61,566 bases of DNA from Chloroflexota bacterium (lineage in GTDB: Bacteria; Chloroflexota; Anaerolineae; Aggregatilineales; UBA2796): positions 1-61,566 of the forward strand of contig JBDTVG010000179.1 of the NCBI GenBank assembly GCA_040007395.1, in the 5' to 3' direction. Positions 38,740 through 56,896 of this stretch are shown one piece after another. The notes under the pieces were generated by a model, which had not been told where the DNA came from, did no database searches, and saw nothing but the letters and a program-made list of their open reading frames with translations. The position numbers and the translations under genes were made by a program. The number at the start of each line of letters is the position of its first letter. The first letter of the stretch is position 1.

Positions 38740-40917
38740 ATGTTCTTCTGGCTGTTCACGGAAGGTCGAGCACTGGTATCCGGCCTGCTTTGTCCACTCA
38801 GCGTTTTGGCGGTGTTGATTCCAGTCGCGGTGACATTCATTTTAGGGGTGGGTATTCAACGCCGTGCCGAAGGTACACCACTCAGTACCAACGGTTGGTT
38901 ATCGTTGGCTAAATGGGTGGCTTTTATTGCGTCTACTATTGGCGCAGCGTCGCTCTATATCTCGCTGCTTGGTGGACTGGCCGTTCAGCGAGCGACAGTT
39001 CACCAAAAGCCATGGGTCGGGTTGCTCAGCGCATTGGTCGGTGGACCTATGACGATCAACCAGCCACGCCTGCTCATCATGGGGAGTGGCTTGTGGATTA
39101 CCCTGCTGTTCTTGAATATGGCGCTCTGGCAAGGGTTGCGGAATGGCGGTTGGTTGCGTGAGTGGATCGACACCCTGCGCCGTCCTAGCCAGCAGCGGGG
39201 CGAAATGGGATCGGCCCATCTGTGTACGCGCCGGGAATATCGCCGTTATCGCCGCGTTGACCCGGAAGGAATCACCTTTTTGGGTGCGTACTGGGGCGAA
39301 CGCAACCTACGTCTCGATGTGGGCTGGGGTCGTTTTTGTCTGAGTAGTGAAGATGCCGCAAGGGGTGTTTTAACGCTTGGTTCGCCCGGTTCAGGGAAAA
39401 CGCAGGCCGTCATTTTACCTGTGATTGCTGACCGAATGCTGGCAGGACACAGCCTGATTGTGGCTGATCCGCAAGGTGAATTGACCCCGCATGTGATGCG
39501 CTTTGCCAAACGAACACACCATTTGGTCGTAGTGCATGATCCCACCAGTCGCGATGGCCCACGCTACAACCTCGCCGCCGGCCTCACCACTATTCCTGCG
39601 GCGGCTGCTATTGCTAAGGTGTTGATCCCCGGTACCCAAGGTGACAATAAATTTTGGTCCGACGCTGCCACCGATCTGCTCTCCGCTTGCTTGATTCGCT
39701 TTGACAACCTCGGTGAGATAAAAGCCGCGTTGGATGATCCCATGACGCTGTCGAAAAAGCTGACCGAGCCACGCGATGACGCAACGCTGGCCGCCAGCGC
39801 TTTCATTGCCAGCGTATCGAGCGATGGCAAAGTCGCGTCCAATACGATTGCGACCCTCGGCACAGCCTTGACGGGCTGGGCCTCTGCCGAAGTCCGCAAG
39901 AATACGAGCGTCTCTGATTTCAATGCGGATTTGATCGTATCGCAAAAGACGATTGTGGTCCTGACCTGCCCCGGTGAGATGCGGGAAGTGTATGCGCCGT
40001 ATCTTGGCGCAACCCTGCGTAAATTGATGCGGGACTTGGATCGCATCGGGGAACAGAATAAAGATCCGCGTCAACCCGGAGCGCTGCCTGTGCCAGTCGG
40101 CATCATCCTCGATGAATTTCCCACACTGGGGCGACTCGATTCGCTTGTGTCTGACGTGAACCTCGTGCGAAAACGAAGGATAAGTATTCTCATTGGTGCC
40201 CAGACCAAAGGCCAATTTCACCTGATCTATGGCGACGAGGCGACCAAAGCACTCTTAACCGGCTTGGCGACGCAAATCGTTTATGGGGCGTGTGACCATG
40301 ACACCGCCGAGTTTTACAGCAAAGCTTCTGGGACTGCCACCGTTGATACCGATCCCGATCCACATAAAGCCAGCCTGCGGCAGCGGCCCTTACTTACTGC
40401 TGATGAAATCGTTAATCCACAGCACGGTAACTGCACGATCTTTTCGCGTTTTGTAGAAGCTAACCATGCACTGCAAGTTATCTTTCAGGCCGAGCTAACC
40501 CGGCTGTACGAACGCGAAGATTGGCAGGAGCATCTGGCAGCTTCGCAAAATAACGAACCCATGATCTTAAAACGTGGCATTTGCCTGACGTTGCCTACTG
40601 TGGCACAATCTGAGGCAGTATCGAGCTTCTCACCACCACCAACGACCTTATCCTCTCCACCGCCTGCATCCCAACATGCTATGCAGACCACAACCGCACA
40701 GCGTTTGAGTCAACCCAGCGCAGATGAGTTGGATGCTATTTTTGGGTCCTCTGAAACCGATTTAGCGATGGTTGAACAGTTGCAGAAAGTGCGACAGCAG
40801 CGTGAAATAGCCAATCACACAAATGTGTTACAGGCGGCAGGTATCATAACGACTACCGTAGACACGTTTAAGAGCAATCTGCATGGAACAGGAGCGCAGA
40901 AAAATGACCTCGACTGA
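38740..40917 (+). CDS. Type IV coupling protein (VirD4/TraG/TraD family).
   Basis: N-terminal TM helices, Walker A GSPGSGKTQ, the T4CP DPKGE motif as DPQGEL, and Walker B ILDEFPTLG. Confidence 0.85.
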   Translation: MFFWLFTEGRALVSGLLCPLSVLAVLIPVAVTFILGVGIQRRAEGTPLSTNGWLSLAKWVAFIASTIGAASLYISLLGGLAVQRATVHQKPWVGLLSALVGGPMTINQPRLLIMGSGLWITLLFLNMALWQGLRNGGWLREWIDTLRRPSQQRGEMGSAHLCTRREYRRYRRVDPEGITFLGAYWGERNLRLDVGWGRFCLSSEDAARGVLTLGSPGSGKTQAVILPVIADRMLAGHSLIVADPQGELTPHVMRFAKRTHHLVVVHDPTSRDGPRYNLAAGLTTIPAAAAIAKVLIPGTQGDNKFWSDAATDLLSACLIRFDNLGEIKAALDDPMTLSKKLTEPRDDATLAASAFIASVSSDGKVASNTIATLGTALTGWASAEVRKNTSVSDFNADLIVSQKTIVVLTCPGEMREVYAPYLGATLRKLMRDLDRIGEQNKDPRQPGALPVPVGIILDEFPTLGRLDSLVSDVNLVRKRRISILIGAQTKGQFHLIYGDEATKALLTGLATQIVYGACDHDTAEFYSKASGTATVDTDPDPHKASLRQRPLLTADEIVNPQHGNCTIFSRFVEANHALQVIFQAELTRLYEREDWQEHLAASQNNEPMILKRGICLTLPTVAQSEAVSSFSPPPTTLSSPPPASQHAMQTTTAQRLSQPSADELDAIFGSSETDLAMVEQLQKVRQQREIANHTNVLQAAGIITTTVDTFKSNLHGTGAQKNDLD

Positions 40918-41212
40918 GCGTCCAGCCCTGACAAAAAGACGCATGGTGCAGTTAATCCATTATCGCACTCGGCTTACCCACAAACAGGTCACCAACGTAC
41001 TGGAAGCGTTCATCGAGTTGGTCAGTCAGGAAATTGCCACAGAAGGGCGTGTGGAGCTAGAAAACTTCCTGACGCTCGATGTAAAAACGGTGAAACATCG
41101 CAGTCCTTACGGGAGTGCGGTGATTGCTTATAAGGCAGTCCGCTGCCGACCCGGACGACGGTTGCGTGCAATGCTGCGTGAAAACCCGCCAGGAAACCAT
41201 AAACGACGGTAA
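40904..41212 (+). CDS. HU/IHF-family DNA-bending protein.
   Basis: LTKRRMVQLI...KQVTNVLEAF...GRVELENFLTLDVKTVKHRSPYGSAVIAYKAVRCRPGRRLR matches the HU/IHF arm and body. The ATG at 40904 is preceded by caggagcg. Confidence 0.7.
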   Translation: MTSTERPALTKRRMVQLIHYRTRLTHKQVTNVLEAFIELVSQEIATEGRVELENFLTLDVKTVKHRSPYGSAVIAYKAVRCRPGRRLRAMLRENPPGNHKRR

Positions 41213-41227: not shown

Positions 41228-41947
41228 ATGCGTGTGGTAATCGTGGATGACAATGAGGTCGCTCAGAATTTTGCCATCAAGATCTTGTGCAGCCATCAGA
41301 TTGATGTTCTTGCGTTCAGCAATTCTATTGAAGCGCTGAATTATTTGACCACCCATGAGCCTGATGCGGTCTTGATCGATTACATGCTACCCGGTGGGCC
41401 TGACGGCCTTAAACTGGCGGCGCAGGTTCGCCGCCTCTATCCGGCGTGCATCATTATTATGATAAGCGCCTACGCCCAGATAGAGGATGTGGTGGAGGCC
41501 ATGCGGATTGGTTGTGACGATTTCTTATTCAAGAAAAATCTTCAGCCAGAGGAATTGTTAAACCGGATCGGCAGTGCGGTGATGCAGCGGAAGGCGTGGT
41601 TCCCCGCCCCGACTCCGACGCGCTTATCAGACGGGGAAATGTACCTCGACGTGGAAGCCTATCGGGCGGTCTGGTACGGCGCGGAGTTGACCCTCACCCC
41701 AACGCAATTCAATGTGCTGATTCAATTACTCTCGAAGCCTGGTCATATTTTTAATTATGGCGAACTGTATGCGCGGTGTACGGGAATACGGCTGGCTCCC
41801 GGTGAGGCACGCTCCAAACTTAAAACGCACATTATCAACTTACGCCAGAAACTCGAACAGGAGGAGCATCCCCGCACCATCTGGAATGTGCGCGGTGCTG
41901 GCTATAAATGGGAAATCCGCAGTGAGCCGTTGCCAGATGATGGCTGA
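41228..41947 (+). CDS. OmpR-family response regulator (REC plus winged-helix trans_reg_C).
   Basis: REC domain with D at IVDDN/LIDY. C-terminal LTPTQFNVLIQLLSKPGHIFNYGELY...IWNVRGAGYKW. Confidence 0.8.
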   Translation: MRVVIVDDNEVAQNFAIKILCSHQIDVLAFSNSIEALNYLTTHEPDAVLIDYMLPGGPDGLKLAAQVRRLYPACIIIMISAYAQIEDVVEAMRIGCDDFLFKKNLQPEELLNRIGSAVMQRKAWFPAPTPTRLSDGEMYLDVEAYRAVWYGAELTLTPTQFNVLIQLLSKPGHIFNYGELYARCTGIRLAPGEARSKLKTHIINLRQKLEQEEHPRTIWNVRGAGYKWEIRSEPLPDDG

Positions 41948-41982
41948 TGGCGGACAGACATAATGATGAGTACTCGCAAAAC

Positions 41983-42345
41983 ATGAAAATACTGTACATT
42001 GAGGACAATCCGACGGCCGTCAAAAATGTCCAACGGCTGGCGGCCCTGATAGGCTGTGAGTGCTTAGTGGCAGTCACGGGAGCGCAGGGTCTAGCCTTAC
42101 TCGATGACCGCCCGGATATCGTCTTGACCGATATGGAGTTACCGGATTATGACGGCATTCCCCTTATCCGCGAAATCCGGTCAAGGGGTTCCACCGTTCC
42201 AATTATTGCTATCACGGGTTTTGCGTTGGTGGGTGAACGTGAGCAGTGTTTCGAGGCAGGCTGCAACGAGTATCTGCGTAAACCCTATGAGCTATCCGCG
42301 TTGATGGACTTACTCAGGCGTTACGGACCCGCCACCAGCAGTTAA
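41983..42345 (+). CDS. Single-domain CheY-like response regulator (the six-frame ORF begins at 41947).
   Basis: MKILYIEDNP...DIVLTDMELPDYDG...K motifs of REC domains. Confidence 0.7.
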   Translation: MKILYIEDNPTAVKNVQRLAALIGCECLVAVTGAQGLALLDDRPDIVLTDMELPDYDGIPLIREIRSRGSTVPIIAITGFALVGEREQCFEAGCNEYLRKPYELSALMDLLRRYGPATSS

Positions 42346-42824: not shown

Positions 42825-45800
42825 ATGACCTATCGGTGGATCACGTCGCTGCGCCGTTCGTTGAATCTTGTCCTTATCCTCGGCCTCGGTATCAACCCAC
42901 TGACACCGATTATTCTCTTGAGAGCCTCGCTCGAAAACGGAAAATCTACTGCCAGTGTTGTCAGTCCCGAAATTGCTTCGGCGGCAGGAGCAACAGCATC
43001 AGCGATTATACCCCCCTCGATACCTGCCAAGTCGCCCGTAGCGAGTGTGTCATCTGCCACCAGCAATTCATGCGATACTAGCCTTGCTATAAAACGGGTG
43101 GGTTTTATGAACATCGGTACTAGTACCGGTTGGACTTATTCCTCTTCAATCTCTGGTAATGGGCGTTATGTCGTTTATACAACCCACAGTAGTCCTTATA
43201 ATCTCAATGAAGATGACTATGAGGATATTAGTCTTTTTGACAGACAAACATGCACAAACACCGGGATTATCTCTACTAGATATGTACCCAACAACTCATT
43301 TGCAATGGAACCTGCCATTTCAGCAGATGGGCGATATGTCGCTTTTATTTCTGGTGGTAGCGCTATAGTACCTAATGATACGAATAATGTTGCAGATGTC
43401 TTTGTCTATGATAGAGACACTCCACAAGGAGGCTCTCACTTTACACGGGCCTCAGTTAGCTCTACGGGGATACAGGCGAATGGTCCTTCTATCGGAAGTA
43501 ACTGGCCTATTTATAATCGCACACTATCAATTTCAGCCGATGGACGTTATGTAGCATTTATTTCTGATGCGAGTAATTTATCGCCAAGCGATACTAATCA
43601 AGATCCAGATGCTTTTGTGCATGATATGGTAACAGGCGAAACATCCCGTGTATCGGTACAAACGGGTGGTGGGCAAGTAGATGGTAACTCTGTGGGAATA
43701 GATGCTATTTCCATTTCTACACCGACTTACGACAATGCACAGCTTCCACAGGATGGCCCTATTGTGGCGTTCTCCTCGAATAGCACGCAACTGGTCTCAT
43801 CTGATAACAATAATTACTCTGACGTTTTTATCCACAACATGAAAACAAATATAACAAGTCGTATTTCTACAAACATAAATGGACAAGAGGCAAATAATAA
43901 TAGCGATAGTCCGTCAATTTCGGCTAACGGTGGCTATGTTGTTTTTCGCTCCGATGCCACAAATTTAGTTGATAATTCATATAATAACCAAGGGGATCTA
44001 TTCCTCTATAAAATTCCAACCGCTACCTTAGCCGCCACTATCACACTAATTACGATGGGTTATGACGGATCTCACACGGATTATGGGTCACGTTTGCCCG
44101 ATATTTCAGCCAATGGTCGGTTTATAACTTTTGCTAGCCAAGCAACCCATTTGGTTTCTGGCTATGACATCAGCGGTGCTCAGTATAATTTCTATAGATA
44201 TGACAGTAAAACAAAAACAACGACCCTATTGAATATAGCTTTTGATGGTCGCTATTTGGGTGGATTAGCACTAACAGCTTCACTTGATTTTTCGGTCACA
44301 ATTTCTGATGATGGGATCAATGCTGCATTTCCTTTTTGGAATTACCTTGGCCCACATAGACTAACCCCACCTGAGTTCCTTGATATATTTCCTCACGCTA
44401 ACCCATCTATCTTTGTGACAAGTATTTTACCGAGCAATCTCGATGCCGTCTCTGGGGATAACCTAGATAGTACCTGCTTGGACTCTAATACCGCTCATCA
44501 GGCGCAAGCCTTCGTGGGTCATTCGCCCAATATTAACCCGCTCACCGGAAATTATGCCTATTCGACCACTGATCTGACCATCCACAGTGAAGGCGATCCG
44601 ATCAGCTTCCGTCGGATCTATTCGACCCATCGGCTCGGTTACACCACTGATAACGACGATATGCTTGGCCCGGGTTGGACTCATAATTTTGATATACGCC
44701 TTCTTTTCAGTTCGCCAGATGCGGTGACTCTCCAATCCTGCAATGGTGCCCGACAGCGTTTCAACAGGGATGGAAATGGCATCTATACGCCGGAGCCAGG
44801 TCTACTGGCGAGTTTAACGGTCGCAACAGGATCGAATGGTGGTTATGTCGTCAAGCTACGTAATCAGACTACATACGTATTCAATGCTCAGGGGCAACTC
44901 ACTCAAATCACACGTGTACCCGGTCTGAAGACTGAGTGGAACGTTTTAAATTTTTCCTATTACACTAATCTCCCCGCAACTGCCTCTAGCGTTGAAAAGC
45001 GCTTGGCATGGATTAAATTTGACAATTTTCGCAACGAAAATGGCACACAACCAGAGCGCTATCTAAGATTTTGCTATTACGATAGCGGGCGGTTGAACTC
45101 GGTGATCGACACTCAGTTGCCGGACTCAACTGCGCCAGACTACTGGAACGATTGCCCAGAGACTAGCAGTACAAATATCGTTCGCGCAAAAGTGAAATTT
45201 ATTTACTCAAATGGTTATGATAATAGCCTTGGCAATTTAATCGCTGCGCGTGATGTTCGTGGACAGGTATGGGACTATATCTATGGACAAACTATTGCAG
45301 ATAAGCCATATCTGACCAAAGTACTCAGCCCATTAGATTACCCCGAAGGTGCAGACCAACCGTGGATAGAGAAACAAGAATATAACTCTGATGACGGGCG
45401 GCTTCTAAGACAATTCAACGGCAATAACAATTTAACTGTCGAATTGTCGCCTCAATCTAATAGTAAACTTCGCATTGATGTTAAGGATGGTCGGGCTAAC
45501 ACACAAACTTATTTCTACAATACGCTGAACAGCTTCGCGGGTATCGAATACCCATTTAAACCCGTAGGAGCGACCGCAACTACCACAATACAAACTGAAA
45601 CACGCTACGACGAAAATTATCGACCAGTGTATCGTAAAGATGGCAACGACAATGTCACCCGGTTAGAGTGGAGTGCCAACGGGCACAACCTGAAATCGAT
45701 TACGGACGCACTGAATCAGACTACGAGCTACGAATACGATACTGCTACTAACAACCTGCTAAAGATTTCCAATCTTGCAGGGAAGAGAAGGACCACTGAG

Positions 45801-48800
45801 TATCGTTATGGAAAAGATTGCGATGATAATCTAGTCAGTAATTCTTTCCCGATGTTCGTTACGGCAATCAAAGAGTCTTCGCTGTCTTCGTCAGATGGGA
45901 CCATACCGACCTGTACTCGCTTTGTCCCGACAGCTTCTGGAAATTTGGGCGAGGTTATCGATACCCAGAACAAAAAGACGGTATATGCGTATCATCGCGA
46001 CGATGCCTATAAGCGCAGTGTTACGGTTGTTAAGAATTACGATGGTGAGACAACCACCTCAGATAAAAATGTTATCACGACCTATTTGTATGACGAACAG
46101 TGGAATTCGCAGTTGGCATTTATCTCAAATGACCGCGATACCCCCATGCCACCGACCCCTACGCCACAACCCGCGGTCCGCCAGTTAACTGCTAGCGACC
46201 CCTCCCAGTGCTCATGGAAAGACAATACACATCGAGGACGGTTGGTTACCGTAGTAGATCCGGCTGGTCATTGGAACCTCACTGGGTACGATGGAGCCGA
46301 TCATCTTATTGTCATTGACAAGAATAGAAGACCTCAATCTCTTAATGATCGGGAGCCGGAACGACCTGGCAATGCTATTATCACGTGCCAGCAGTACGAT
46401 GCCGCTGGACGACTAGAAATTATGTACGAAACATTATCGAGACTCACTAATAATTCGGACTTACTAAACATTTTTAACCGACCTGTGCCAAATGGTATGG
46501 ATCTAGATAAACGCTATACACACTTTAGATATGACGACGCTAACCAGTTGACCCGAGTTATTCGCAATGCGTTTCCCAGCGGTACTGACCCATTAGATCT
46601 CTATAGTTTCAATACTCAATATCCTGATATAAACATTAGTACTGGCTATATTTACGATGAAGCAGGCAATGTAACTAGCTCCTTTAATGCAGGTGGTTTG
46701 CCTGAACGTGTTGACCAAACTTGCTATGACAATTTGAACCGTCCGGTAATGCGTGTTCAAAATGCAAAGACTGGTATAAGTAGCACAGCGTGTACATTTC
46801 TAAGCACCTCATCCGCCAAGCCCGATGAAGACGTTACGACTCTGATGAGGTATGATGCAGTCGGTAATGTCATCCAAACGACGAATGTTACTAACTCAAG
46901 TAATACAGACCTCGTCACTCAATTCAAGTACGATGCCCTGAATCGCCAAACAGCGACGATTGAGAATGTGAAGCCTGTCTCTGTTACGACAGATCAAAAC
47001 GTAAAATCTTATACATTTTATAACCAGCTTGGGCAAGTTCAAAGCAAAGTGGATCCAGTGAAGCATGTCACTTGGTTATGTTATGATGGCCTCAACCGCC
47101 CCAACCGCCAAGTGGTCAATTTCAGCAACATTTCCAATCTAGGCAGTATTGATGAAAACACGCCACCTGTTCACGCTCCCGATAAAGATCCTTGTCTATC
47201 CACTTACACCGAAGATCCATCTCCAGACAAAGACCTTGTTTCTCTGACTGTCTATGATGGGCTTGGACGCGTTTTGGATACGATTGATCCACTAAAGCGT
47301 AAGACTCACCTCGACTATGATGCTCTGGATCGCCCAACGCTAAAAATTGCCAATTATCAGAATGGCGAATTTGATCCAAGCCTGCCTGATCAAGATGTGT
47401 TTGAACAAACCCAGTATGATCCTCTGGGGCGAGTCATCAGTGTCGCCACAGCATCGCCAGCTCTTACGCCTTCAACTACCGCTTTTGCACCAACATGTGT
47501 TTCTACAAGCAATACTATAGATAACCGATGTCGATACACAAAGATTTCTTATGACGACTCGCTCTTGATGGTCACGACTACTCAAAACTATAAGGATGGA
47601 AATCTAGACGCGAATAATCCTGACGAGGATATATCAACCGTCGTATGGTACGATGCAATGGGTCTGCCCAATCGACAAGATACACCTAAACGTCAGAACA
47701 GTATTCATGAGCCGATTTTATACTCTTTTTATGATGGTATGGATCATCTGCTCAAAGTCACTAACAAGTTTTGGCCCGATGGTAAAAAAACCTATGTTTA
47801 TGACGCGTTGGGTCGGCTGATCACACAAATCAATGCCCTTGAGAAGAATACTGAGATTACCTACGACGGGCTGAACCGTCAATGCTCCATTAAGGATGCA
47901 CGACAATCCCAAACCAAGCTTATCTATAACAAATTAGGCCAAGTTATCCGCCGCATTGATCCCAATGGTGTAGTCACCCGCCTAGACTATGATGGAATGG
48001 GGCATTTGAAGTATGTCTGGGAGAACTATCAAGGGTCCGATAACCCTCCTCCGTCTAATGGGTGTGAATATTTAAGTACAGATAGTGCTACCCCTACTCC
48101 AAACAACCAAGCTTTTCCAGATAGGAATGTGCGTACCGCCTACGAATACGATGAACTCGGCAATCTGACAAAAATGACCCTGCCAAATGGCAGCGTTACT
48201 AATTATACCTATGATCAGCTGAATCGGCGGCTCACGGTAGTTGGTCCGTTGGCTGGACCAAACAACACTTGGACGACTACCTATTCAAAAATATACCAAA
48301 ATGATGCTGATGCCCCCGGGATACCAGTCCTTATAACTCAAATGACAGATCCTCTTGGAAAGGTCCACAAGACTGAGTACAACGGTCTCGGTCAAGTCCT
48401 CCGCACAAACCATACCGATGCCAATCAACCTAAACTTGATACACAATTTAGCTACGATCCGGCGGGTCGGTTGTTGAAGATGACCGATTCACTGGCAGGC
48501 ACCCCAGTAGCGAATACCGACTTTAAACATGATGGCATGGATCGGCTCACTTCAGTCACGGATTCTTTCAACAAAACAGTGGGCTATCAATACAATGTTG
48601 ATGGCACCCGCAAGGAACTTGATTTACCTGATAGTCGCAAAATTAACTACGAGTATTTTGATAGTGGTCTCTTACAAAACGTTCATACCACTGGAATCGG
48701 TTGGAATACCCAAACCCAGGCAACATATGACTATGATGTCGCCGGGAACGTGAAAACAATGGTGCTCGGCAATGGGGTCCGGGCGACCTATGATTATTAT

Positions 48801-51800
48801 GAAGACAACCGCCTAAGGTCACTGGAATATCAGCCCCCTTCATCCGATGCAGTGCTATCAGCCTATGTATATTCACTGGATAAGGTCGGTAATCGCTGCA
48901 TCACCCAAGAATATTTTGAACAGCCCCCTGCAACGCTAAATGCACCTGAACCCTGCCCGACAGAGACGGCGACTGAAATACCGACGAATACTCCCACGGT
49001 TACGCCGACATTTACCGAAACAGCGACTAGCACAGCGACAACTACATCTACTGATACACCAACCAATACGGCAACCGCGACAGCAACCAACACGGCGACT
49101 GCAACCCCCAGTAATACAGCAACAAAAACAGCTAGCGCAACAGCGACAAACACGCCAACCGCGACGTTTACGACCAGCAATACACCAACCAATACCGCCA
49201 CACCAATTACGCCAACAAAAACGGCGACCAATACCGCAACGCGAACTCCTACCAATACGGCAACAGCCACCGCCACACCCACACGGACTCCCACTTTTAC
49301 GGCAACGCCTGTGCCAAGTGTCGGGGATACTATTGGGGTTCTCCACCCCTCAAACCAAACTTTTTATCTGCGTAATTCGAATACCACAGGAAACGCCGAT
49401 ATTACAGCACCGTTCGGCACTAATAGCGCGGAGGTGCCGATTACAGGGGATTGGAACGGCGATGGCATCGATACCATTGGCTACTTCCTGCCCAGCACAG
49501 GTGAGTTTGTCCTACGCGACAGCAATAGTGCTGGCTCCCCAACTTATGACTTTACGTTTGGTGCTTCAGGTGACATTCCAATCGTTGGTAACTGGAATGG
49601 CAATACCGGTGGCATCGTCCCAGGCAATGGCAAAGATGGTATTGGTGTATACCGGCCTTCCAATGGTACGTTCTACTTGAGGAACACTTTGTCGTCCGGC
49701 TTTGCTGACTACACCATAACGTTCGGCAATCCTAGTGATCTACCTATCGCAGGCGATTGGGATCACGACGGTAAAGACAGCCCAGGGGTTTTCCGACCTT
49801 CTACTTCCCAATTTTTCTTGACTAATCAGGTGTGCAATTGCAGTGGCGTTGCTGCCTATACTATGACGTTTGGAGCCAGCGGGGATCAACCCATTGCAGG
49901 CGATTGGAATGGCGATGGCATCAGCGGTATTGGGGTATTCCGTTCTACGACTACACAAATGTTTCTACACAATAACCCAACTACTTCCGGTGCAGCGACG
50001 GCGGATTTCAGTTTCACTTATGGCTCAATTGGTGATAAGCCAGTTGCTGGACACTGGGCAGCTGGTAGCTTGCCTAGCCAAGCCCTGACCCTCTCGACAA
50101 ATAATCTGTGTACGCTGCCCACTCAGCCGCGAGCATGGGAAGTACAGAATCCCAACACACAGCCCGTGAAGTTTGTATGGACAATCCTGAATTCCACACG
50201 GGGGCAGAGTGGCAAAGGCATCGTGCCTGCTGGTGGTACTATGACGTTTATGACGCTACCTGAGCCGGCCAACGGCATTGTGCAGATCTATGTCAACGGT
50301 ATCTTGCAGGCTGCTCAAGCTAGTACTGTCCCGGCTTGCACAGCCACCCCAAGCGCTACCCCTACGGCTAGCGCCACACCGCGAGATACAGTGACGGCTC
50401 CGCCAACCCACATACCCAGCAGTACCAATACCATGCTACCGACAAATACGGCAACGCTTAACATGGTCACCCCAACGCGGACTATCGTCGTGACGGCAAC
50501 CTCAACGAATGCAGCAACACTAACGATTGAAGTTGCCACAGCAACACCGATCTTTATCGTCACTCCCACCGCGACACCGACAAATACCGCGACTCAAACG
50601 GTTGCACCTGCCACAGCAACGCCAACTTCGACAGTCACAGCCACTCTCACGCCATCGGTTACGGCAACTCCGACTTATACCGCCAGTGCAACCAACACAG
50701 CTACGACCACCGCCACGCCATCCAATCATGGCGGCCGGATTGTCTTCGCCTCGGATCGGGACGGCGGCAACTGGGACATCTACAGCATGAACGGCGATGG
50801 CACAGATGTCCAGCGCCTAACGAGCGACCCCGCAGTGGATGGACAGCCTACTTGGTCGCCGGATGGCACACAGATTGCCTTCTTCTCGGCGCGAGACGGG
50901 AACTGGGAAATCTATGTGATGAACGCCGATGGCAGCCATGTCCAGCGGATCACGCACAACAATGTTGTTGACGAACAGCCCGCGTGGTCGCCCGATGGCA
51001 AACAGATTGTCTTTGCCTCTGGGCCAAGCGATCATCTGGATCTGTACACCATGAATGTCGATGGGTCTCAGCTACAGCGCTTAACCAACAACGGCAGTTC
51101 GAATCAGCAGCCCGCCTGGTCACCCGATGGCAAAGAGATCGCCTATACCTCTGGGCACGGTGCGGATACCGACTTGTATGTTATGGCTGTCGATGGTTCA
51201 GCTACGCGACGACTGACGAACGACTTTCACACCAACCAGCAGCCCACCTGGTCAGCCGATGGTCAGCGCCTGCTGTACAGTTCCAATCGCGGTGGCAACT
51301 TCGATGTCTACGTGATGGATGCTGCCGACAGCGCCAACAACCAAAACCTGACGAACAGCCCCACTGCCGAGCAGCAGGCGGTGTGGTCGCCCGATAATCA
51401 CCAAATCGCTTTCAGCAGCAAACGCGCCGACCATCTGGACATCTACGTCATGAACGCCGATGGCAGTGCCGCGCATAATTTGACCGCGCAGCATGGGGAA
51501 AATGGGTCGCCGAGCTGGACCGACACCGCGACAATCACTGTTACACCGAGTAGCACCCCCCACCTCGCGCCGACTTTTGTGCCGAACCAAAGTTCGATAG
51601 TGAATGTTCAGTTTGTGCCGCCAACGCTCGCCCCGGTGCGGCCAAATCGCCAGATAGTCAATAGGCCCGCCCTACAGCCTGTAGCGCAAATTTCGCCTAC
51701 GCTCACCCTGAATTTTGAAGCGGACAGCTATAATGCAGCGCCTGAGACAGTAGGCAATTGTAATGTAGCTGGCGATGCAGGTATTTGGGCAGTCAACACT

Positions 51801-53936
51801 GGTTGGTCAGCTAGGGTTGTTTACAACCTTAATAATTCGGGCTGTGAAATCGGGCATTTGCTATACATTCAAGTGCCGTCTTCGGCCTTTACAGGTTATG
51901 TTGACCGCGTTACCGTTACTTATGATTATAGTTGCCCCAATACAAGTAACTGTGTTGGGCAAGGTCGATTTGGAAACGATTCGCAGACCACTACCCTCAT
52001 CAAAGGAGACAATGTCCATCAGACGGTTAAGCTTGACACTATGCAATCTGGCCTTTCATTCTATATGCAAGGCGACAGTGGGGGTACAGGTTATGTTCCT
52101 ACGGGCTACATCAATCTCCGTAAAGTCGAGATATACGCAACAAGTGACCACGCCTCCCAGCAGACCATCCATTACACCTATGACAAGCTCTACCGCCTGA
52201 CCCAAGCCGAGTACGAGGGTACCGATGGGATTCCGACTCGGCAGTACGATTACACCTACGACCTGATGAATCGCACACAGGCCAAATTGACTCTGCCCAG
52301 TCTAACGCCTGTTATCGACGTGTTTACGTATAACGAAGCCAACCAAATCAAAACACGGACGCTAAACAATCAAACAGTCACTTATGACTACGACTTTGCG
52401 GGGAACCTGAAAAGTGATGGGCCTAACACCTATGGCTATGATCCCGCCAACCGCTTAAGGCAGTTTAGCAATATTGGTAACAGCATGTACACCGAATACC
52501 AATATGACGGGCTGGATCACCGCTCCAAGCAGATCGTGAATGGTGTTAACACGACCTACCTATATGACATCAACGCGGGGCTGCCCCAGCTACTCAGTGA
52601 GTCGGCGGGAAGCTCATCAACGTGGTATCTGAACGGTCTTGATGTGGTCGCCCAGCAGACTGGCCCAACATGGAGCTACTTCAGTCAGGACGGACTAGGG
52701 TCTGTCCGCCAGATGCTCGATCCGACGCAGAGTGTCACGATGAGTGCAGAGTACGATCCGTATGGCGTACCGATTGCGTCACCCACAACGACGCTGGGCT
52801 ACACCGGAGCACCGACCGACCAGAATAGCTTGGTGTACCTGAACGCCCGCTACCTCGACCCAGCGACAGGCACCTTCCTGAGCCGCGACCCCTTCGAGGG
52901 CATGGCAGACAGCGTTATGTCGCGCAACCCGTACAGCTATACGGGCGGCAACCCGGTCAATCGCACTGACCGCAATGGCAAATGCTTTTGGGATGGTTGC
53001 ATTGCCGAAGCCATAATAGTCGGAGCCGTATTTGGGGCAGTAACCAGCGCTGGCATTAACGGCGCAATCCAAATTGGCGCTGGGATGGCCTTCAAGCATC
53101 AGTCTTTGGGCGAGGCTTGGACCAACCTCAATTGGGGTGAGGTGGCGGTATCTGGGATTGAAGGTGCGGTCTTTGGTGCAATTGCAGGGCCAATTGGTGC
53201 GTGGACCGGTGGTTTGGTCAAAACAGGTAGTATCACTGGGGCGCAAGCATTAATCGGTGGATTCGCGTTCAATACGACAATCGGCACTGCTTCAAGTGTC
53301 TTCATCCATCGACAAGACTTTGCTTCGGCGGCGGTTGCTAATGTGGCAGGCGGTTTGATCGGTGAGGCAGTCGGTTATGGCTTGAGTAGGGCTTTTAGAC
53401 GACCGTCAATTGTTCCTGCCGAGACCGAAAATATGGCTGGGACAGGTGGTGTAACTTCATATGTCAATGAACAGCCGTCCACCAACATGCAAAACCAAGA
53501 GAAAAATATGTCATGTGGCGCTGCATGTATTCGACAATATTTACTCGATGTAGGTAAGGACGTACCAGAATCTGAGATCCGACCATTAGCAGGATTTTGG
53601 GAGAAATATGGAATCGAAGGTGAGCGAGCCGCAGATGCATTAAATGAACTCTATCCTGACAAAGAAGCTTTATTTTATGGTGGTGGGGTTCGTTACGATA
53701 CACCACTAGAAAATTTGAATCGTACAGGGACGTGGATGGCCCAGCTTGGATTATCAACCGGCCCTCACTGGGTATTGGTTGATGGCTTTAATGAAGCAGG
53801 ATTGTTAATGATTCGCGATCCATGGGGAGTAACTGGGCCTGGTTCTGGCTTCGGCTCTGAAGCTACAATAAAACCTGAAGATTTTCAGCATCTTTGGGAT
53901 CTCGCAGCAAATCAAGTGGTATATCGAAAGAGATAA
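42825..53936 (+). CDS. Giant secreted RHS/YD-repeat polymorphic toxin (about 3,700 aa). Order of domains: signal peptide; PD40/TolB-like propeller; long YD-repeat shell; Thr/Ala/Pro/Asn linker; FG-GAP/VCBS module; second linker; second TolB-like propeller; beta-rich domain; YD repeats and RHS core; Gly-zipper hydrophobic segment; C-terminal C39-like papain-fold peptidase domain.
   Basis: Repeats such as ISADGRYVAFIS (PD40), YDxxGRL/YDGLNR (YD), WSPDGxxIAFxSxRDGNWEIYVMNADGS (TolB), the RHS core end RYLDPATGTFLSRDP...NPYSYTGGNPVNRTD, then AIIVGAVFGAVTSAGINGAIQIGAGMAF and NMSCGAACIRQYL...GPHWVLVDG...IRDPWG (Cys...His...Asp, C39-like). Confidence 0.85.
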   Translation: MTYRWITSLRRSLNLVLILGLGINPLTPIILLRASLENGKSTASVVSPEIASAAGATASAIIPPSIPAKSPVASVSSATSNSCDTSLAIKRVGFMNIGTSTGWTYSSSISGNGRYVVYTTHSSPYNLNEDDYEDISLFDRQTCTNTGIISTRYVPNNSFAMEPAISADGRYVAFISGGSAIVPNDTNNVADVFVYDRDTPQGGSHFTRASVSSTGIQANGPSIGSNWPIYNRTLSISADGRYVAFISDASNLSPSDTNQDPDAFVHDMVTGETSRVSVQTGGGQVDGNSVGIDAISISTPTYDNAQLPQDGPIVAFSSNSTQLVSSDNNNYSDVFIHNMKTNITSRISTNINGQEANNNSDSPSISANGGYVVFRSDATNLVDNSYNNQGDLFLYKIPTATLAATITLITMGYDGSHTDYGSRLPDISANGRFITFASQATHLVSGYDISGAQYNFYRYDSKTKTTTLLNIAFDGRYLGGLALTASLDFSVTISDDGINAAFPFWNYLGPHRLTPPEFLDIFPHANPSIFVTSILPSNLDAVSGDNLDSTCLDSNTAHQAQAFVGHSPNINPLTGNYAYSTTDLTIHSEGDPISFRRIYSTHRLGYTTDNDDMLGPGWTHNFDIRLLFSSPDAVTLQSCNGARQRFNRDGNGIYTPEPGLLASLTVATGSNGGYVVKLRNQTTYVFNAQGQLTQITRVPGLKTEWNVLNFSYYTNLPATASSVEKRLAWIKFDNFRNENGTQPERYLRFCYYDSGRLNSVIDTQLPDSTAPDYWNDCPETSSTNIVRAKVKFIYSNGYDNSLGNLIAARDVRGQVWDYIYGQTIADKPYLTKVLSPLDYPEGADQPWIEKQEYNSDDGRLLRQFNGNNNLTVELSPQSNSKLRIDVKDGRANTQTYFYNTLNSFAGIEYPFKPVGATATTTIQTETRYDENYRPVYRKDGNDNVTRLEWSANGHNLKSITDALNQTTSYEYDTATNNLLKISNLAGKRRTTEYRYGKDCDDNLVSNSFPMFVTAIKESSLSSSDGTIPTCTRFVPTASGNLGEVIDTQNKKTVYAYHRDDAYKRSVTVVKNYDGETTTSDKNVITTYLYDEQWNSQLAFISNDRDTPMPPTPTPQPAVRQLTASDPSQCSWKDNTHRGRLVTVVDPAGHWNLTGYDGADHLIVIDKNRRPQSLNDREPERPGNAIITCQQYDAAGRLEIMYETLSRLTNNSDLLNIFNRPVPNGMDLDKRYTHFRYDDANQLTRVIRNAFPSGTDPLDLYSFNTQYPDINISTGYIYDEAGNVTSSFNAGGLPERVDQTCYDNLNRPVMRVQNAKTGISSTACTFLSTSSAKPDEDVTTLMRYDAVGNVIQTTNVTNSSNTDLVTQFKYDALNRQTATIENVKPVSVTTDQNVKSYTFYNQLGQVQSKVDPVKHVTWLCYDGLNRPNRQVVNFSNISNLGSIDENTPPVHAPDKDPCLSTYTEDPSPDKDLVSLTVYDGLGRVLDTIDPLKRKTHLDYDALDRPTLKIANYQNGEFDPSLPDQDVFEQTQYDPLGRVISVATASPALTPSTTAFAPTCVSTSNTIDNRCRYTKISYDDSLLMVTTTQNYKDGNLDANNPDEDISTVVWYDAMGLPNRQDTPKRQNSIHEPILYSFYDGMDHLLKVTNKFWPDGKKTYVYDALGRLITQINALEKNTEITYDGLNRQCSIKDARQSQTKLIYNKLGQVIRRIDPNGVVTRLDYDGMGHLKYVWENYQGSDNPPPSNGCEYLSTDSATPTPNNQAFPDRNVRTAYEYDELGNLTKMTLPNGSVTNYTYDQLNRRLTVVGPLAGPNNTWTTTYSKIYQNDADAPGIPVLITQMTDPLGKVHKTEYNGLGQVLRTNHTDANQPKLDTQFSYDPAGRLLKMTDSLAGTPVANTDFKHDGMDRLTSVTDSFNKTVGYQYNVDGTRKELDLPDSRKINYEYFDSGLLQNVHTTGIGWNTQTQATYDYDVAGNVKTMVLGNGVRATYDYYEDNRLRSLEYQPPSSDAVLSAYVYSLDKVGNRCITQEYFEQPPATLNAPEPCPTETATEIPTNTPTVTPTFTETATSTATTTSTDTPTNTATATATNTATATPSNTATKTASATATNTPTATFTTSNTPTNTATPITPTKTATNTATRTPTNTATATATPTRTPTFTATPVPSVGDTIGVLHPSNQTFYLRNSNTTGNADITAPFGTNSAEVPITGDWNGDGIDTIGYFLPSTGEFVLRDSNSAGSPTYDFTFGASGDIPIVGNWNGNTGGIVPGNGKDGIGVYRPSNGTFYLRNTLSSGFADYTITFGNPSDLPIAGDWDHDGKDSPGVFRPSTSQFFLTNQVCNCSGVAAYTMTFGASGDQPIAGDWNGDGISGIGVFRSTTTQMFLHNNPTTSGAATADFSFTYGSIGDKPVAGHWAAGSLPSQALTLSTNNLCTLPTQPRAWEVQNPNTQPVKFVWTILNSTRGQSGKGIVPAGGTMTFMTLPEPANGIVQIYVNGILQAAQASTVPACTATPSATPTASATPRDTVTAPPTHIPSSTNTMLPTNTATLNMVTPTRTIVVTATSTNAATLTIEVATATPIFIVTPTATPTNTATQTVAPATATPTSTVTATLTPSVTATPTYTASATNTATTTATPSNHGGRIVFASDRDGGNWDIYSMNGDGTDVQRLTSDPAVDGQPTWSPDGTQIAFFSARDGNWEIYVMNADGSHVQRITHNNVVDEQPAWSPDGKQIVFASGPSDHLDLYTMNVDGSQLQRLTNNGSSNQQPAWSPDGKEIAYTSGHGADTDLYVMAVDGSATRRLTNDFHTNQQPTWSADGQRLLYSSNRGGNFDVYVMDAADSANNQNLTNSPTAEQQAVWSPDNHQIAFSSKRADHLDIYVMNADGSAAHNLTAQHGENGSPSWTDTATITVTPSSTPHLAPTFVPNQSSIVNVQFVPPTLAPVRPNRQIVNRPALQPVAQISPTLTLNFEADSYNAAPETVGNCNVAGDAGIWAVNTGWSARVVYNLNNSGCEIGHLLYIQVPSSAFTGYVDRVTVTYDYSCPNTSNCVGQGRFGNDSQTTTLIKGDNVHQTVKLDTMQSGLSFYMQGDSGGTGYVPTGYINLRKVEIYATSDHASQQTIHYTYDKLYRLTQAEYEGTDGIPTRQYDYTYDLMNRTQAKLTLPSLTPVIDVFTYNEANQIKTRTLNNQTVTYDYDFAGNLKSDGPNTYGYDPANRLRQFSNIGNSMYTEYQYDGLDHRSKQIVNGVNTTYLYDINAGLPQLLSESAGSSSTWYLNGLDVVAQQTGPTWSYFSQDGLGSVRQMLDPTQSVTMSAEYDPYGVPIASPTTTLGYTGAPTDQNSLVYLNARYLDPATGTFLSRDPFEGMADSVMSRNPYSYTGGNPVNRTDRNGKCFWDGCIAEAIIVGAVFGAVTSAGINGAIQIGAGMAFKHQSLGEAWTNLNWGEVAVSGIEGAVFGAIAGPIGAWTGGLVKTGSITGAQALIGGFAFNTTIGTASSVFIHRQDFASAAVANVAGGLIGEAVGYGLSRAFRRPSIVPAETENMAGTGGVTSYVNEQPSTNMQNQEKNMSCGAACIRQYLLDVGKDVPESEIRPLAGFWEKYGIEGERAADALNELYPDKEALFYGGGVRYDTPLENLNRTGTWMAQLGLSTGPHWVLVDGFNEAGLLMIRDPWGVTGPGSGFGSEATIKPEDFQHLWDLAANQVVYRKR

Positions 53937-54262: not shown

Positions 54263-54271
54263 ACATCATCC

Positions 54272-54795
54272 ACCAGTGTGATGGACTGGATCACTGCTAC
54301 AAGCAGACCGTAAACGGTGATTCCACGACCTACGTGTTTGACATCAACGCACAGTTACCCCAGCTGTTCAGTGAGTCAACGGGGAATTCGACGCGGTATC
54401 TGAATGGTCTGGATGTCGTTGCCCAGCAGCGGAATAACGAAGGGTGGAGCTACTTCGGACAGGATGGGCTGGGGTCTGTCCGCCAGATGATCGATCCGGC
54501 GCAGAATGTCACGATGAACGCCGAGTACGATCCGTATGGGGTGCCGATTGCGCCACCCACGACGACACTGGGCTACACCGGTGCGCCGACCGACGCAAAT
54601 GGCCTGGTGTACCTGAACGCCCGCTACCTCGACCCAGCGACTGGCACCTTCCTGACCCGTGACCCCTTCGAGGGCGTGGCAGACAGCGCCATGTCGCGCA
54701 ACCCGTACAGCTATACTGGCGGCAACCCGGTCAATCGCACCGACAGAAGTGGGAAATTCGCACCGGTACATTTTGCATGGCACCTTTTGAATTAA
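54272..54795 (+). pseudogene. Orphan RHS C-terminal fragment: a copy of the last part of the RHS shell/core of the upstream giant gene without a start, ending in a 12-aa stub (FAPVHFAWHLLN) instead of a toxin domain.
   Basis: DGLDHCYKQTVNGDSTTYVFDINAQLPQL...RYLDPATGTFLTRDPFEGVADSAMSRNPYSYTGGNPVNRTDRSGK is nearly identical to residues encoded at about 52,500-52,990 of the main gene. Confidence 0.7.
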
Positions 54796-54919: not shown

Positions 54920-56896
54920 TTAGCCGGAAAAGCGTACATTATCTCGATCAGCCAGAGTAGGATCTGCCAGTGGCAGTGTGAAGTGGAATGTGGTTCCTTG
55001 TCCGGCTTGACTCTCAACCCAAATTCTGCCGTTTTGCAGTTCGATAAAGCGTTTGCTAATGTGCAATCCCAGACCTGTCCCGCCGAATTCACGGGTAATC
55101 TCTTGTGAGCCTTGAAGGTAGGGCGTGAATAGGCTTTCCAGCACTTGTGGTGAAATGCCGGGTCCGGTATCGGCAACTGCAAAATGCAGCATCGTTGTTT
55201 CGGGATATACACTCAACGTGATGCTACCTGTAGTCGTAAACTTCACAGCATTTCCGACAATGTTAGTCAGCACTTGCGTGAGCCGTAAATCGTCAGCCAA
55301 GATAGCAGGTAATGAAGTACTGTATGCTGTGCGAAACTCTACGCCATTTTGGAGGGTGATCAGTGCGTTTTGGTGTACCTGTTCCAAAATAGGCAGCGGA
55401 TCAATCGCTTTGACGGCAATCTCCATTTTTCCCGCTTCAATTTTGGCAAGATCGAGTACTTCATCCACTAACTTCTTGAGAAGTTGTGCATTGTATTCGA
55501 CATCCACAATATCCAATCGATAGGCTTCTGGCAGAGGGATGTTCTGAAATGTCTCAGGGAAATTCAAGACGAACTCAGTAGTATGCAGGATATTGCTCAC
55601 AGGGTTTCTAATCTCATGGCTCATGTACGTGATAAACTGTGTTTTGGCGGCGTTGGCTTGCTGGGCCTCTTCGAATAGCTCGGCATTGCGGATGGCGATG
55701 GCAATTTGCCGAGCCAGGATCTGGAGTACTTCAATATCAGCGGCAGAAAACGCATTGAGTTGATCACTCTCAATATCGAGTACCCCTACGAGTTTTTCTT
55801 CGGATGTACGGACAAATAAGGGGATCGTGACTTCAGATAATGTTTGTGGGAATAACGCATCATAGGCAAATCGGCTATCCTTGCGGACATCAGCGACCAT
55901 AACCACTTCCCGCAGGACAGCCGCAGCCCCGACTAAACTGGTGATATCTAAAGCGTGCTGCCGACTATCCGTCGAAGTAAGCGGCGGAAAAGTTCCCGCA
56001 GCAGCACGTAAGATAAGGGCTTCTTGTGTACCATCGTAGAGGTAAACGGCAACGGCATAGTAGTCGAAAGTCTGCTGGATTTCCTCAACCATCACTTGCA
56101 ACAAATTATCTAAGGTCAAAAATGCAGTTATGTGCTGCCCTACACGTGTGATGGCGCTTAGTTGCTCAGCGCGATAGGATAGCTTGCGGTTGAGTTGCGT
56201 TAATGGATCAAACAATCGCTGCTGTAGCACTGGCCCAGCCAAAATGAGCACACTTAGCGTATAAAGATTGGCTCCTACCGAGAATTTAGGCAGAATATCG
56301 GTGATATAGGCGAAGCCCGCAACATGCAATAATATCAACCCCAAAAATAATCGTCGGTTAGTGTTCAGTGATGCTCGCTTAATTTCCGTGAGCAGGATAA
56401 GAAACGAATACCCATTAATGATTTCGCCAAGGGCCAACAAGACTAATCCTATCGTGCTTGTTGAGCGTTCCAGAGTTCCGTTAGGAAAATAGCTTACTTG
56501 GGGAAACAATAAATTCTGACTGCCAAAAACGGCAACGACGAATACATAAATCACTATCAATCTAACCACAATTCGTTGCGAAAAAGTCCATGCAATGAGG
56601 AATTCCAGGACAAAGATTAGGGTAAATAAGGGGATCGTCGATAAGGCTATTGCTGCCATATTGAAGTACGGTAGCAAGTGAGGTGGATCGAGGCGACCGA
56701 CAATGTCGATAACGCAATTCATTAGCCCAAAGCAGCCAATACAAAAGACCAGTGCGGCGAAGGCCTGTCCTTTGGTATCTCGTGTGAGCTGAAATAAAAC
56801 AAGCATTACCACCGAAAAGCTGGTGATGGCGGTGAGCGCTTCGGACAGCAGTACTAAGCCTGCAAACCACTGCCCAACTTCGGTGAGCTGTACCAT
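54920..56896 (-). CDS. Membrane sensor histidine kinase (polytopic N-terminal sensor, GAF domain, HisKA, HATPase_c).
   Basis: Six or more N-terminal TM helices, H-box HEIRNPVSNIL, G-boxes GTGLGLHISKRFIELQNGRIWVESQAGQGTTF. Confidence 0.85.
   Translation of the reverse strand: MVQLTEVGQWFAGLVLLSEALTAITSFSVVMLVLFQLTRDTKGQAFAALVFCIGCFGLMNCVIDIVGRLDPPHLLPYFNMAAIALSTIPLFTLIFVLEFLIAWTFSQRIVVRLIVIYVFVVAVFGSQNLLFPQVSYFPNGTLERSTSTIGLVLLALGEIINGYSFLILLTEIKRASLNTNRRLFLGLILLHVAGFAYITDILPKFSVGANLYTLSVLILAGPVLQQRLFDPLTQLNRKLSYRAEQLSAITRVGQHITAFLTLDNLLQVMVEEIQQTFDYYAVAVYLYDGTQEALILRAAAGTFPPLTSTDSRQHALDITSLVGAAAVLREVVMVADVRKDSRFAYDALFPQTLSEVTIPLFVRTSEEKLVGVLDIESDQLNAFSAADIEVLQILARQIAIAIRNAELFEEAQQANAAKTQFITYMSHEIRNPVSNILHTTEFVLNFPETFQNIPLPEAYRLDIVDVEYNAQLLKKLVDEVLDLAKIEAGKMEIAVKAIDPLPILEQVHQNALITLQNGVEFRTAYSTSLPAILADDLRLTQVLTNIVGNAVKFTTTGSITLSVYPETTMLHFAVADTGPGISPQVLESLFTPYLQGSQEITREFGGTGLGLHISKRFIELQNGRIWVESQAGQGTTFHFTLPLADPTLADRDNVRFSG

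Follow-up and report, generated by a model that had tools for sequence, protein, structure and literature searches.

A predicted Sec-exported RHS/YD-shell toxin of Chloroflexota with a glycine-zipper module and a C39-like cysteine peptidase tip

Main finding and identity of the RHS gene

A stretch of 61,566 nucleotides from an uncultured Chloroflexota bacterium (GenBank assembly GCA_040007395.1, contig JBDTVG010000179.1, positions 1 to 61,566), hereafter the window, contains a very large rearrangement hotspot (RHS) gene. A single open frame on the forward strand (42825-53936, from the ATG at 42825 to the stop codon at 53934-53936) encodes a protein of 3703 aa and 402 kDa, and a Shine-Dalgarno-like motif (GAGAAGG) lies 6 nt upstream of its start codon. 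The product is probably a Sec-exported polymorphic toxin with an RHS/YD shell, a cargo made of a conserved glycine-zipper module (module A) and a cysteine peptidase of the Cpe1/StbD-CT family, and a 107-aa immunity protein encoded directly downstream. Pfam and NCBIfam scans reproduced, within one open reading frame (ORF), the order of domains that a preliminary description made from the sequence had listed (Table 1).

RHS/YD repeats were matched by PF05593 (E 1e-48) and, as the multiple repeats typical of RHS toxins, by TIGR01643 (E 2e-34), and a regular-expression count gave approximately 26 YDxxG-like motifs in YD block 1, which includes a DUF6443 match at aa 1329-1406, and five in YD block 2. 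The RHS-associated core was recognized by TIGR03696 over profile positions 1-75 of 76 (56-58 bits, cut-off 32.5). These repeats and core, along with a variable tip, a candidate immunity gene and an orphan core, bear out the earlier classification of the gene as an RHS/YD polymorphic toxin. The first 35 residues reached a Kyte-Doolittle 19-residue maximum of 1.95. No genes of a type VI secretion system (T6SS) were found in the window, and together with the N-terminal signal this points to Sec export. RHS-linked homologues are, however, labeled "T6SS" by Song et al.

The C-terminal peptidase

The variable C-terminal cargo (318 aa, 33.5 kDa) consists of module A, a linker with an AGTGG motif and a C39-like peptidase domain. 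An exhaustive HMMER search over 1.84 billion representatives (E<=1e-3) found 188 relatives of this cargo, which behaved as two independent modules, whereas a word-indexed search with the whole cargo returned no match and also missed the query itself. The profile of the peptidase family matched the solved structures of StbD-CT (8ssk, 1e-31) and Cpe1 (9l5u, 3e-31), and matched more weakly the peptidase domain of PCAT1 (5e-10), ComA (4e-6), LahT (1e-5), and AvrRpt2 (5e-4). With the single tip sequence as a phmmer query, StbD and Cpe1 were matched at E 1e-4 to 7e-4. The Pfam C39 family (PF03412) recognized the closest homologue (P0002) with 30.3 bits against a cut-off of 22, as well as 29 of 44 longer homologues (E<=1e-3).

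The AlphaFold2 model of the tip reached a pLDDT of 92 when the alignment was supplied, compared with 41 from the single sequence. Foldseek placed this model closest to StbD-CT (8ssm_A: E 1.4e-10, target-normalised TM-score 0.86, root-mean-square deviation 2.0 Å; 8ssk was also among the top matches) and Cpe1 (9l5u: target-normalised TM-score 0.86-0.88), followed by PCAT1, ComA, and LahT. The predicted catalytic residues are Gln3558, Cys3564 (53514-53516), His3648 (53766-53768) and Asp3665 (53817-53819), which are >=99% conserved in the family, and their triad aligned with Cys183, His258, and Asp275 of StbD. Among 60 aligned sequences, His3648 and Asp3665 were invariant, and Cys3564 and Cys3568 were conserved in at least 90%; across 149 sequences the Cys was retained in 132/133, the His in 136/137, the Asp in 137/138, and the Gln at position -6 in 124/124. 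No ABC transporter is adjacent, and the domain sits at the C-terminal end of an RHS protein instead of at the N-terminus of an ABC exporter. Because of the profile matches, the predicted fold and the Pfam C39 scores of its homologues, the tip is confidently assigned to the C39-like cysteine peptidase toxins of the Cpe1/StbD-CT group. The papain-fold, C39-like tip with Cys, His, and Asp in that order, which had been read from the letters, was recovered by profile searches and by fold comparison.

Cpe1 is a T6SS effector that cleaves GyrB and ParE and whose toxicity depends on its Cys (PMC12136450), and StbD-CT has the same two targets (bioRxiv 10.64898/2026.05.07.723447). Cleavage of GyrB and ParE at the ATP-binding Gly-Gly is known for Cpe1 and StbD-CT only. 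The suggestion of a proteolytic toxin and of a self-processing release mechanism matches the experiments on these two homologues. It is possible, but rather doubtful, that the tip is a toxin with another substrate, such as a different protein with an exposed Gly-Gly or an envelope target outside the cytoplasm. This alternative draws on the low identity of the tip to the characterized enzymes (just 21-26%), on its position in a distinct sub-clade (MSCGAACxRQ, GPHWVIVDG, and a 7-residue insertion after DPWG) with an immunity family of its own, and on the simple recognition motifs of C39 peptidases (bioRxiv 10.64898/2026.05.07.723447). Set against it are the strong profile match to StbD and Cpe1 (1e-31), the conservation of the auto-processing motif and of the CxxxC pair, both tied to cytoplasmic activation, and the fact that StbD and Cpe1 diverge from each other and yet share their target (bioRxiv 10.64898/2026.05.07.723447).

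The auto-processing motif

The AGTGG motif lies 22 residues before Cys3564 and aligned with GGAGG of StbD, and the spacing of Cys3564 and Cys3568 equals that of Cys183 and Cys187 in StbD. An upstream GG was present in 60 of 75 homologues with enough sequence, and the glycines of GxG were >=90% conserved among longer members. StbD-CT cuts itself in cis after the Gly-Gly of its linker, under reducing conditions only, and this cut is needed for intoxication (bioRxiv 10.64898/2026.05.07.723447). The scissile bond in the window protein has two candidate positions: strict alignment would place it at Gly3539|Thr3540, whereas the double-glycine rule would place it at Gly3542|Val3543.

Module A as a candidate translocation domain

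Module A is composed of 18% Gly and 18% Ala and contains four hydrophobic segments, three of which carry small-xxx-small zipper motifs; its hydrophobicity is moderate to strong (Kyte-Doolittle maximum 1.9). Both composition and motifs agree with the glycine-zipper-like segment noted after the core in the preliminary description. Homologues of module A were found in four other proteins (P0001, P0033, P0085, and P0117) with 23-54% identity, always directly after the core cleavage motif, and shared conserved Gly, FA(F/L)(N/D), and SN motifs. The tips behind it were a peptidase (P0117), a deaminase-like domain (P0001), and two domains without assignment (P0033 and P0085), so that at least four tips were counted over the five proteins. 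P0001, a metagenomic fragment of 384 aa, has a near-identical RHS core, a module A with 58% identity, and a tip with the motifs HPIAACSE ... PRCLNC; as a close relative, it shows that tips have been exchanged behind module A. A pair of Cys residues (CFWDGC, 52983-53000, aa 3387-3392) lies just past the predicted core cut and recurs in three of the four other module A proteins, where it could form a disulfide and act as a second redox switch.

In Tde1, a T6SS DNase of Agrobacterium, a glycine zipper is needed for translocation (PMC10240207), and CdiA-CT toxins share a cytoplasm-entry domain before the variable enzymatic domain (bioRxiv 10.64898/2026.05.07.723447). By analogy, the hydrophobic zipper helices and the reuse of module A before different tips suggest that it may be a membrane-insertion or translocation module that substitutes for the YajC-dependent entry domain seen in StbD and Cpe1.

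Alternatively, module A might itself be a membrane-depolarising pore former, like Tse5-CT, EsxX, or TelE, that the C39 peptidase merely releases. Its four Gly/Ala-rich hydrophobic segments, three zippers and Kyte-Doolittle maximum of 1.9 would suit such a role, published examples of glycine-zipper toxins exist on Rhs or LXG carriers, and some papain-like domains of polymorphic toxins are releasing peptidases (Zhang et al., PMC3482391). We nevertheless regard this alternative as quite improbable. The occurrence of module A before at least four unrelated tips is a better fit to a shared delivery module than to a toxin, and the immunity-family gene accompanies the peptidase also on carriers without module A (MuF-fused and stand-alone). 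The 107-aa protein is soluble and acidic and has no membrane segment. The immunity proteins of pore formers are usually membrane proteins. Searches of PDB, Pfam, and NCBIfam gave no match to module A, including none to Tse5 or to pore formers of the Tse5-CT or EsxX type, with which it has just the zipper motif in common, and homologous peptidase domains are toxic alone (PMC12136450).

Immunity gene and turnover of the cassette

The candidate immunity gene (ABI947_19380) starts 2 nt past the toxin stop codon and encodes a soluble protein with an isoelectric point of 4.2. Its GC content at third codon positions (GC3) is 0.31, close to that of the peptidase (0.32) and far from that of the core (0.69). 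The word-indexed database held no homologue of the 107-aa protein beyond itself, and neither the single sequence nor two family profiles gave a significant match in PDB; a topoisomerase II match (15 bits, E 0.18) was judged to be noise. The analysis covered the next gene downstream of six peptidase homologues, which occur on an orphan RHS tip, in stand-alone genes, in a short RHS cassette, and in a fusion to phage MuF beside a portal gene. Five of the six downstream genes, those of the closest homologues, encode mutually related small proteins. The 107-aa protein matched four of them with 34, 32, 32, and 21 bits (the lowest score being 19 or 21, and the range about 19-34), and the MuF-linked one was tied in via the others. 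Gly28, Gly29, Phe45, and Trp54 were invariant in this family. The sixth gene, which encodes 197 aa and follows the more distant P0117, had a weak link through other members and no match to the 107-aa protein. The positional conservation across carriers supports a cognate immunity family and, with it, the prediction that the 107-aa protein is the immunity protein of the peptidase, as had been proposed for the downstream gene.

A 490-bp copy of the core directly follows the stop codon of the immunity gene. Its homology to the core ends exactly at the core/cargo junction, after which 12 codons follow (FAPVHFAWHLLN*). An orphan core that ends at this junction is the classic scar of RHS tip replacement, and the copy appears to be what decay has left of a tip that was displaced. 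A variable tip, an immunity gene, and an orphan core thus occur together, and GC3 falls from 0.69 to 0.32 at the tip. The peptidase and immunity cassette was probably acquired by recombination at the core, leaving the orphan core downstream.

Related cassettes were observed on other contigs. In one locus (L014, 3230-6629), a phage Mu F-like head protein is fused to a C39 toxin domain (P0011) and follows an SPP1-type portal gene; the gene after P0011 encodes a 94-aa protein that belongs to the immunity family of the 107-aa protein, so that the toxin-immunity pair also occurs in a phage-borne form. On a 107-kb contig (ENA ERZ25072999), positions 1-17400 of locus L001 hold an array in which each toxin gene, of YD-shell or HINT type, encodes a short protein (467-755 aa); the C39-tipped P0117 and a PT-HINT deaminase are among them. 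Three units of this array (280-3528, 9015-12256, and 16417-17372) start with a 38-45-aa gene and a 279-aa gene, whose function was not assigned. The array could be an undescribed delivery or cassette system.

The interrupted YD shell

YD blocks 1 and 2 are separated by 1,076 aa of non-YD sequence (aa 2033-3108; approximately 113 kDa), so that the YD shell is not continuous as it is in RHS toxins. The combination of two propellers with an FG-GAP module had been called uncommon. No relative with this arrangement was found, and the arrangement is better described as an insertion of about 1,076 aa that splits the YD shell. The FG-GAP/VCBS label of the GDWNGDG repeat module is less firm: PF13517 stands in the precomputed annotation of several homologues, while the module's own Pfam FG-GAP_3 match was sub-threshold (E 0.12). 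No above-threshold Pfam or NCBIfam match was obtained in direct scans for the tip, module A, the small beta-rich domain, the unannotated domain, and the 107-aa protein. The unannotated domain (aa ~2940-3108) also had no match in PDB, and it abuts YD block 2 with no low-complexity linker between them. The N-terminal 1,005 aa had no sequence match in PDB; propeller 1 therein is made of about seven ISxDGRYVxF blades.

The GDWNGDG module also terminates many secreted hydrolases. A two-part query that contained it matched >5000 proteins, and paralogues in the same metagenome-assembled genome (MAG) were 55-59% identical. A search with the module returned thousands of unrelated secreted enzymes, and there was no RHS protein among the 120 matches listed. 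Numerous secreted enzymes, proteases and glycosidases among them, carry homologues of the module, and one paralogue (~68% DNA identity) forms the C-terminal part of a 694-aa protein with seven FG-GAP_2 repeats in the window itself (155-2239).

Searches for the arrangement of the unannotated domain and YD block 2 gave one weak Viridibacillus YD match alone in the GTDB species genomes and no match in the JGI metagenomes. A query with the core and module A found six loci with 33-46% identity, of which the two inspected (L007 and L010) were short cassettes. A possible sharing of the unannotated domain by P0117 was rejected; P0117 is a complete short RHS gene in the cassette array. Long DNA repeats in the linkers as a cause of misassembly were likewise rejected within the window, where the longest exact repeat shared elsewhere was 16 nt.

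Recombination in the Thr/Pro/Ala linkers could have made the composite ORF an inactive fusion; alternatively, metagenome assembly could have joined parts of two or three genes through these linkers into a chimera. GC3 is strongly mosaic along the ORF (0.33-0.47 in the first 2,030 aa, with 0.33 in propeller 1; 0.69 in the TolB-type propeller; 0.47 in the unannotated domain; and 0.69 in YD block 2 and the core), the MAG encodes many paralogues of the GDWNGDG module, including one on this contig, and no relative sharing the junction of the unannotated domain with YD block 2 was found in either of the two genome collections. StbD, moreover, has been described as an inactive recombinant fusion (bioRxiv 10.64898/2026.05.07.723447). 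On the other hand, the frame stays open over 11.1 kb, exact repeats between the linker DNA and the rest of the window do not exceed 16 nt, and GC3 also jumps at the junctions of the unannotated domain, where no low-complexity DNA could misassemble. The end of YD block 1 and the start of YD block 2 coincide with repeat boundaries, and the spliced shell is roughly co-linear with the solved Rhs shell 8h8a: aa 1639-1976 aligned to residues 463-768 and aa 3183-3377 to residues 950-1144 (of 1152). Against solved Rhs and teneurin-like shells, YD block 2 and the core aligned to the final ~200-270 aa. TcB toxins also have a beta-propeller within the shell. An inactive fusion or an assembly chimera is, on this balance, unlikely.

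A bolder proposal is that the split shell is genuine and functional, and represents a new design of Sec-exported RHS carrier in Chloroflexota. About 113 kDa of tethered binding modules (the GDWNGDG module, the small beta-rich domain, the TolB-type propeller, and the unannotated domain) would then loop out between two YD repeats and serve target recognition, module A would be a reusable translocation domain, and the self-cut of the C39 peptidase would free the enzyme. We put this forward tentatively, as a possibility with the odds against it. If it is true, module A would be an undescribed domain that takes RHS cargo into the cytoplasm of a neighbor without a T6SS or the receptor pathway of contact-dependent inhibition (CDI), and a real split shell would mean that the RHS cocoon tolerates very large insertions.

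Proposed mode of action and significance

The reading of the gene as a Sec-exported RHS/YD toxin with a module A and peptidase cargo can be put into the following scheme. The propellers and the repeat module may, we infer, bind the producer surface or a target cell. The YD shell would enclose the cargo, and the RHS core, which is intact and has Arg3342, Asp3355, and Asp3382 at near-canonical spacing (motif PVNRTDRNG), would cut the cargo free near Gly3385. Module A would insert into the target membrane and carry the peptidase across, a role that its zipper helices and its reuse with different tips make plausible. In the reducing cytoplasm, by analogy with the homologues, the peptidase would cut itself at AGTGG and then inactivate an essential protein. 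The likeliest targets, judging from homology to StbD-CT and Cpe1, are the ATPase subunits GyrB and ParE, which would be cut at a conserved Gly-Gly. The producer would be protected by the adjacent acidic 107-aa protein.

Several observations weigh against this reading. The interruption of 1,076 aa might prevent closure of the shell, and searches of GTDB species genomes and JGI metagenomes gave no relative with the same arrangement of the unannotated domain and YD block 2. The core motif DRNG has Arg at the Pro position of the canonical DPxG; Arg is found at the same position (DRSG) in the orphan core copy and in P0001. Pfam Peptidase_C39 scored the domain of the window protein at 16.3 bits, below its cut-off of 22, and the tip is 21-26% identical to StbD and Cpe1, a level at which the substrate could differ. 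The bond that aligns with the StbD cleavage site, Gly3539|Thr3540, is non-canonical with Ala at P2, and the GG follows two residues later. The immunity family has no detectable similarity to StbI or Cpi1.

A protease tip of this kind on RHS proteins in Chloroflexi is already known. The mechanism of the peptidase family was established in 2025-2026. Three features are new here: a Gly-zipper module takes the position of the known entry domain, the immunity family lacks detectable similarity to StbI and Cpi1, and the shell is interrupted. Gyrase-cleaving C39 toxins have been characterized only among proteobacterial CDI and T6SS effectors, and here the family occurs on a Sec-type RHS carrier in Chloroflexota, where the peptidase is paired with a Gly-zipper domain instead of a YajC-dependent entry domain and with a candidate immunity protein not detectably similar to StbI or Cpi1. 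If module A translocates, the protein would offer a simple system to ask whether redox-gated self-release is general, and could show how enzymes enter neighboring cells from bacteria without a T6SS.

Genomic neighborhood

Upstream of the toxin, a mobile-element-like block (12839-41212) has a GC content of 52-60% (55-60% at 16-22 kb and 28-32 kb), whereas the RHS gene has 45% over its first two thirds. Two response regulators (41228-42345) precede the toxin on the same strand, and downstream of it (54920-58471) the opposite strand encodes a histidine kinase of the GAF/7TM type and a further kinase fragment; two-component genes thus flank the locus.

Table 1. Coordinates of the RHS/YD toxin gene, its predicted modules and neighboring genes in the 61,566-nt window.
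Feature	Position (nt)	Strand	Basis or context
Large serine recombinase	12839-14581	-	mobile-element-like block
NB-ARC/TPR STAND NTPase	16032-18770		mobile-element-like block
DUF6094 methyltransferase-like protein, 1490 aa	28838-33310		mobile-element-like block
VirD4/TraG coupling protein	38740-40917		mobile-element-like block
HU-like protein	40883-41212		mobile-element-like block
Full RHS/YD toxin ORF, 3703 aa	42825..53936	+	Pfam and NCBIfam scans
Predicted N-terminal signal peptide or membrane anchor, aa 1-35 (Arg4, Arg10, Arg11, then hydrophobic)	42825..42929	+	role from sequence
PD40-type propeller 1, aa 96-560	43110..44504	+	Pfam PD40 E 1.7e-11 on segment
DUF6531 (aa 570-646) and YD block 1 (to aa 2032)	44505..48920	+	Pfam, NCBIfam, motif positions
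Thr/Pro/Ala/Asn linker 1, aa 2033-2163, start of insertion	48921..49313	+	sequence
GDWNGDG repeat module (FG-GAP/VCBS-like), aa 2164-2415	49314..50069	+	FG-GAP_3 sub-threshold
Small beta-rich domain, aa 2416-2500	50070..50324	+	weak DUF4183 similarity, E 0.005, under Pfam cut-off
Thr/Pro/Ala linker 2, aa 2501-2633	50325..50723	+	sequence
TolB-type PD40 propeller 2, aa 2634-2900	50724..51524	+	TIGR02800 E 3e-67; PD40 E 3e-50
Linker 3 and unannotated domain, aa 2901-3108 (domain ~2940-3108)	51525..52148	+	sequence
YD block 2 and RHS-associated core, aa 3109-3385 (core 3310-3385)	52149..52979	+	TIGR03696
Module A, Gly/Ala-rich, hydrophobic, aa 3386-3527 (first residues K-CFWDGC)	52980..53405	+	hydropathy, zipper motifs, homologues
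AGTGG motif, candidate auto-processing site, aa 3538-3542	53436..53450	+	alignment with StbD GGAGG
C39-like cysteine peptidase domain, aa 3543-3703	53451..53933	+	profiles, fold model, conservation
Candidate immunity gene, 107 aa	53939..54262	+	positional family, GC3
Orphan RHS core fragment	54265..54795	+	83% DNA identity to 52498-52983

Comparison with known systems

The cargo resembles StbD-CT, which belongs to a CdiA-like protein of Citrobacter rodentium (8SSK/8SSM). They share the C39-like fold, the Cys/His/Asp triad, and the CxxxC spacing, and in both a Gly-rich auto-processing motif precedes the catalytic Cys by 22-25 residues. Each has a two-part cargo (delivery module, linker, and peptidase) with an adjacent small immunity gene. 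They differ in the carrier, which is CdiA (type V secretion) for StbD and an RHS shell here. The entry domain of StbD is a seven-helix, YajC-dependent domain, and its alignment with module A reached 2.5 bits, with no significant similarity. The peptidase domains are 21-23% identical, and StbI, the immunity protein of StbD, is not detectably related to the 107-aa protein. Cpe1/Cpi1 of E. coli ATCC 11775, a PAAR-linked T6SS pair (9L5U; PMC12136450), has a peptidase of the same family and fold. Cpe1 is delivered by the T6SS via a PAAR-like domain, whereas the window protein has a Sec-type N-terminal signal, and Cpi1 is not detectably related to the 107-aa protein. A supplementary table of PMC12136450 (2025) includes RHS-linked Cpe1 homologues, one of them from a Chloroflexota MAG.

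The window protein also fits the definition of Tox-PLC39, the C39/ComA-related papain-like tips with C, H, and D, an in-silico class that Zhang et al. (2012, PMC3482391) recorded both in Chloroflexi and on proteins with RHS repeats. The catalogue entry of Tox-PLC39 has no immunity family, and the term "glycine zipper" is absent from PMC3482391. A zipper before an enzymatic toxin is found in Tde1, where GxxxG repeats are needed for membrane permeabilisation and for translocation into prey (PMC10240207), and the same logic is proposed for module A. The two have no sequence homology and differ in form: a short adaptor-binding zipper in Tde1, and a 140-aa domain inside an RHS cargo here.

Among RHS shells, TcB-TcC forms a YD/RHS cocoon with an aspartyl-protease core and the cleaved toxin inside, and has a beta-propeller inserted in the shell chain. 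The propeller of Tc toxins is a compact gate that docks on TcA, whereas here long flexible linkers tether an inserted propeller together with two domain modules, and the neighborhood encodes no TcA-like partner.

The definition of the bacterial teneurin-like proteins (TLPs) comprises an FN-plug, an NHL propeller, a continuous YD shell, and a ~15-kDa cargo, and Chloroflexota is not included among the phyla listed for them. The window protein differs in its PD40-type propeller, a shell split by 1,076 aa, and a 33.5-kDa cargo; it had no match to NHL or to the FN-plug and by sequence appears to fall outside the definition. It resembles the TLP known as BiTLP (9PT5/9IFO; PMC13018210) and its kind, which are Sec-exported YD-shell toxins displayed on the surface, whose N-terminal adhesion modules vary and whose propeller sits beside the shell. 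YD block 2 aligned to residues 1879-2143 of 9pt5, and both proteins have an Arg-Asp-Asp arrangement with an Arg-to-Asp spacing of 13, which serves RHS-core autoproteolysis in BiTLP and may do so in the window protein. Bacterial teneurin-like proteins are the nearest described carrier class.

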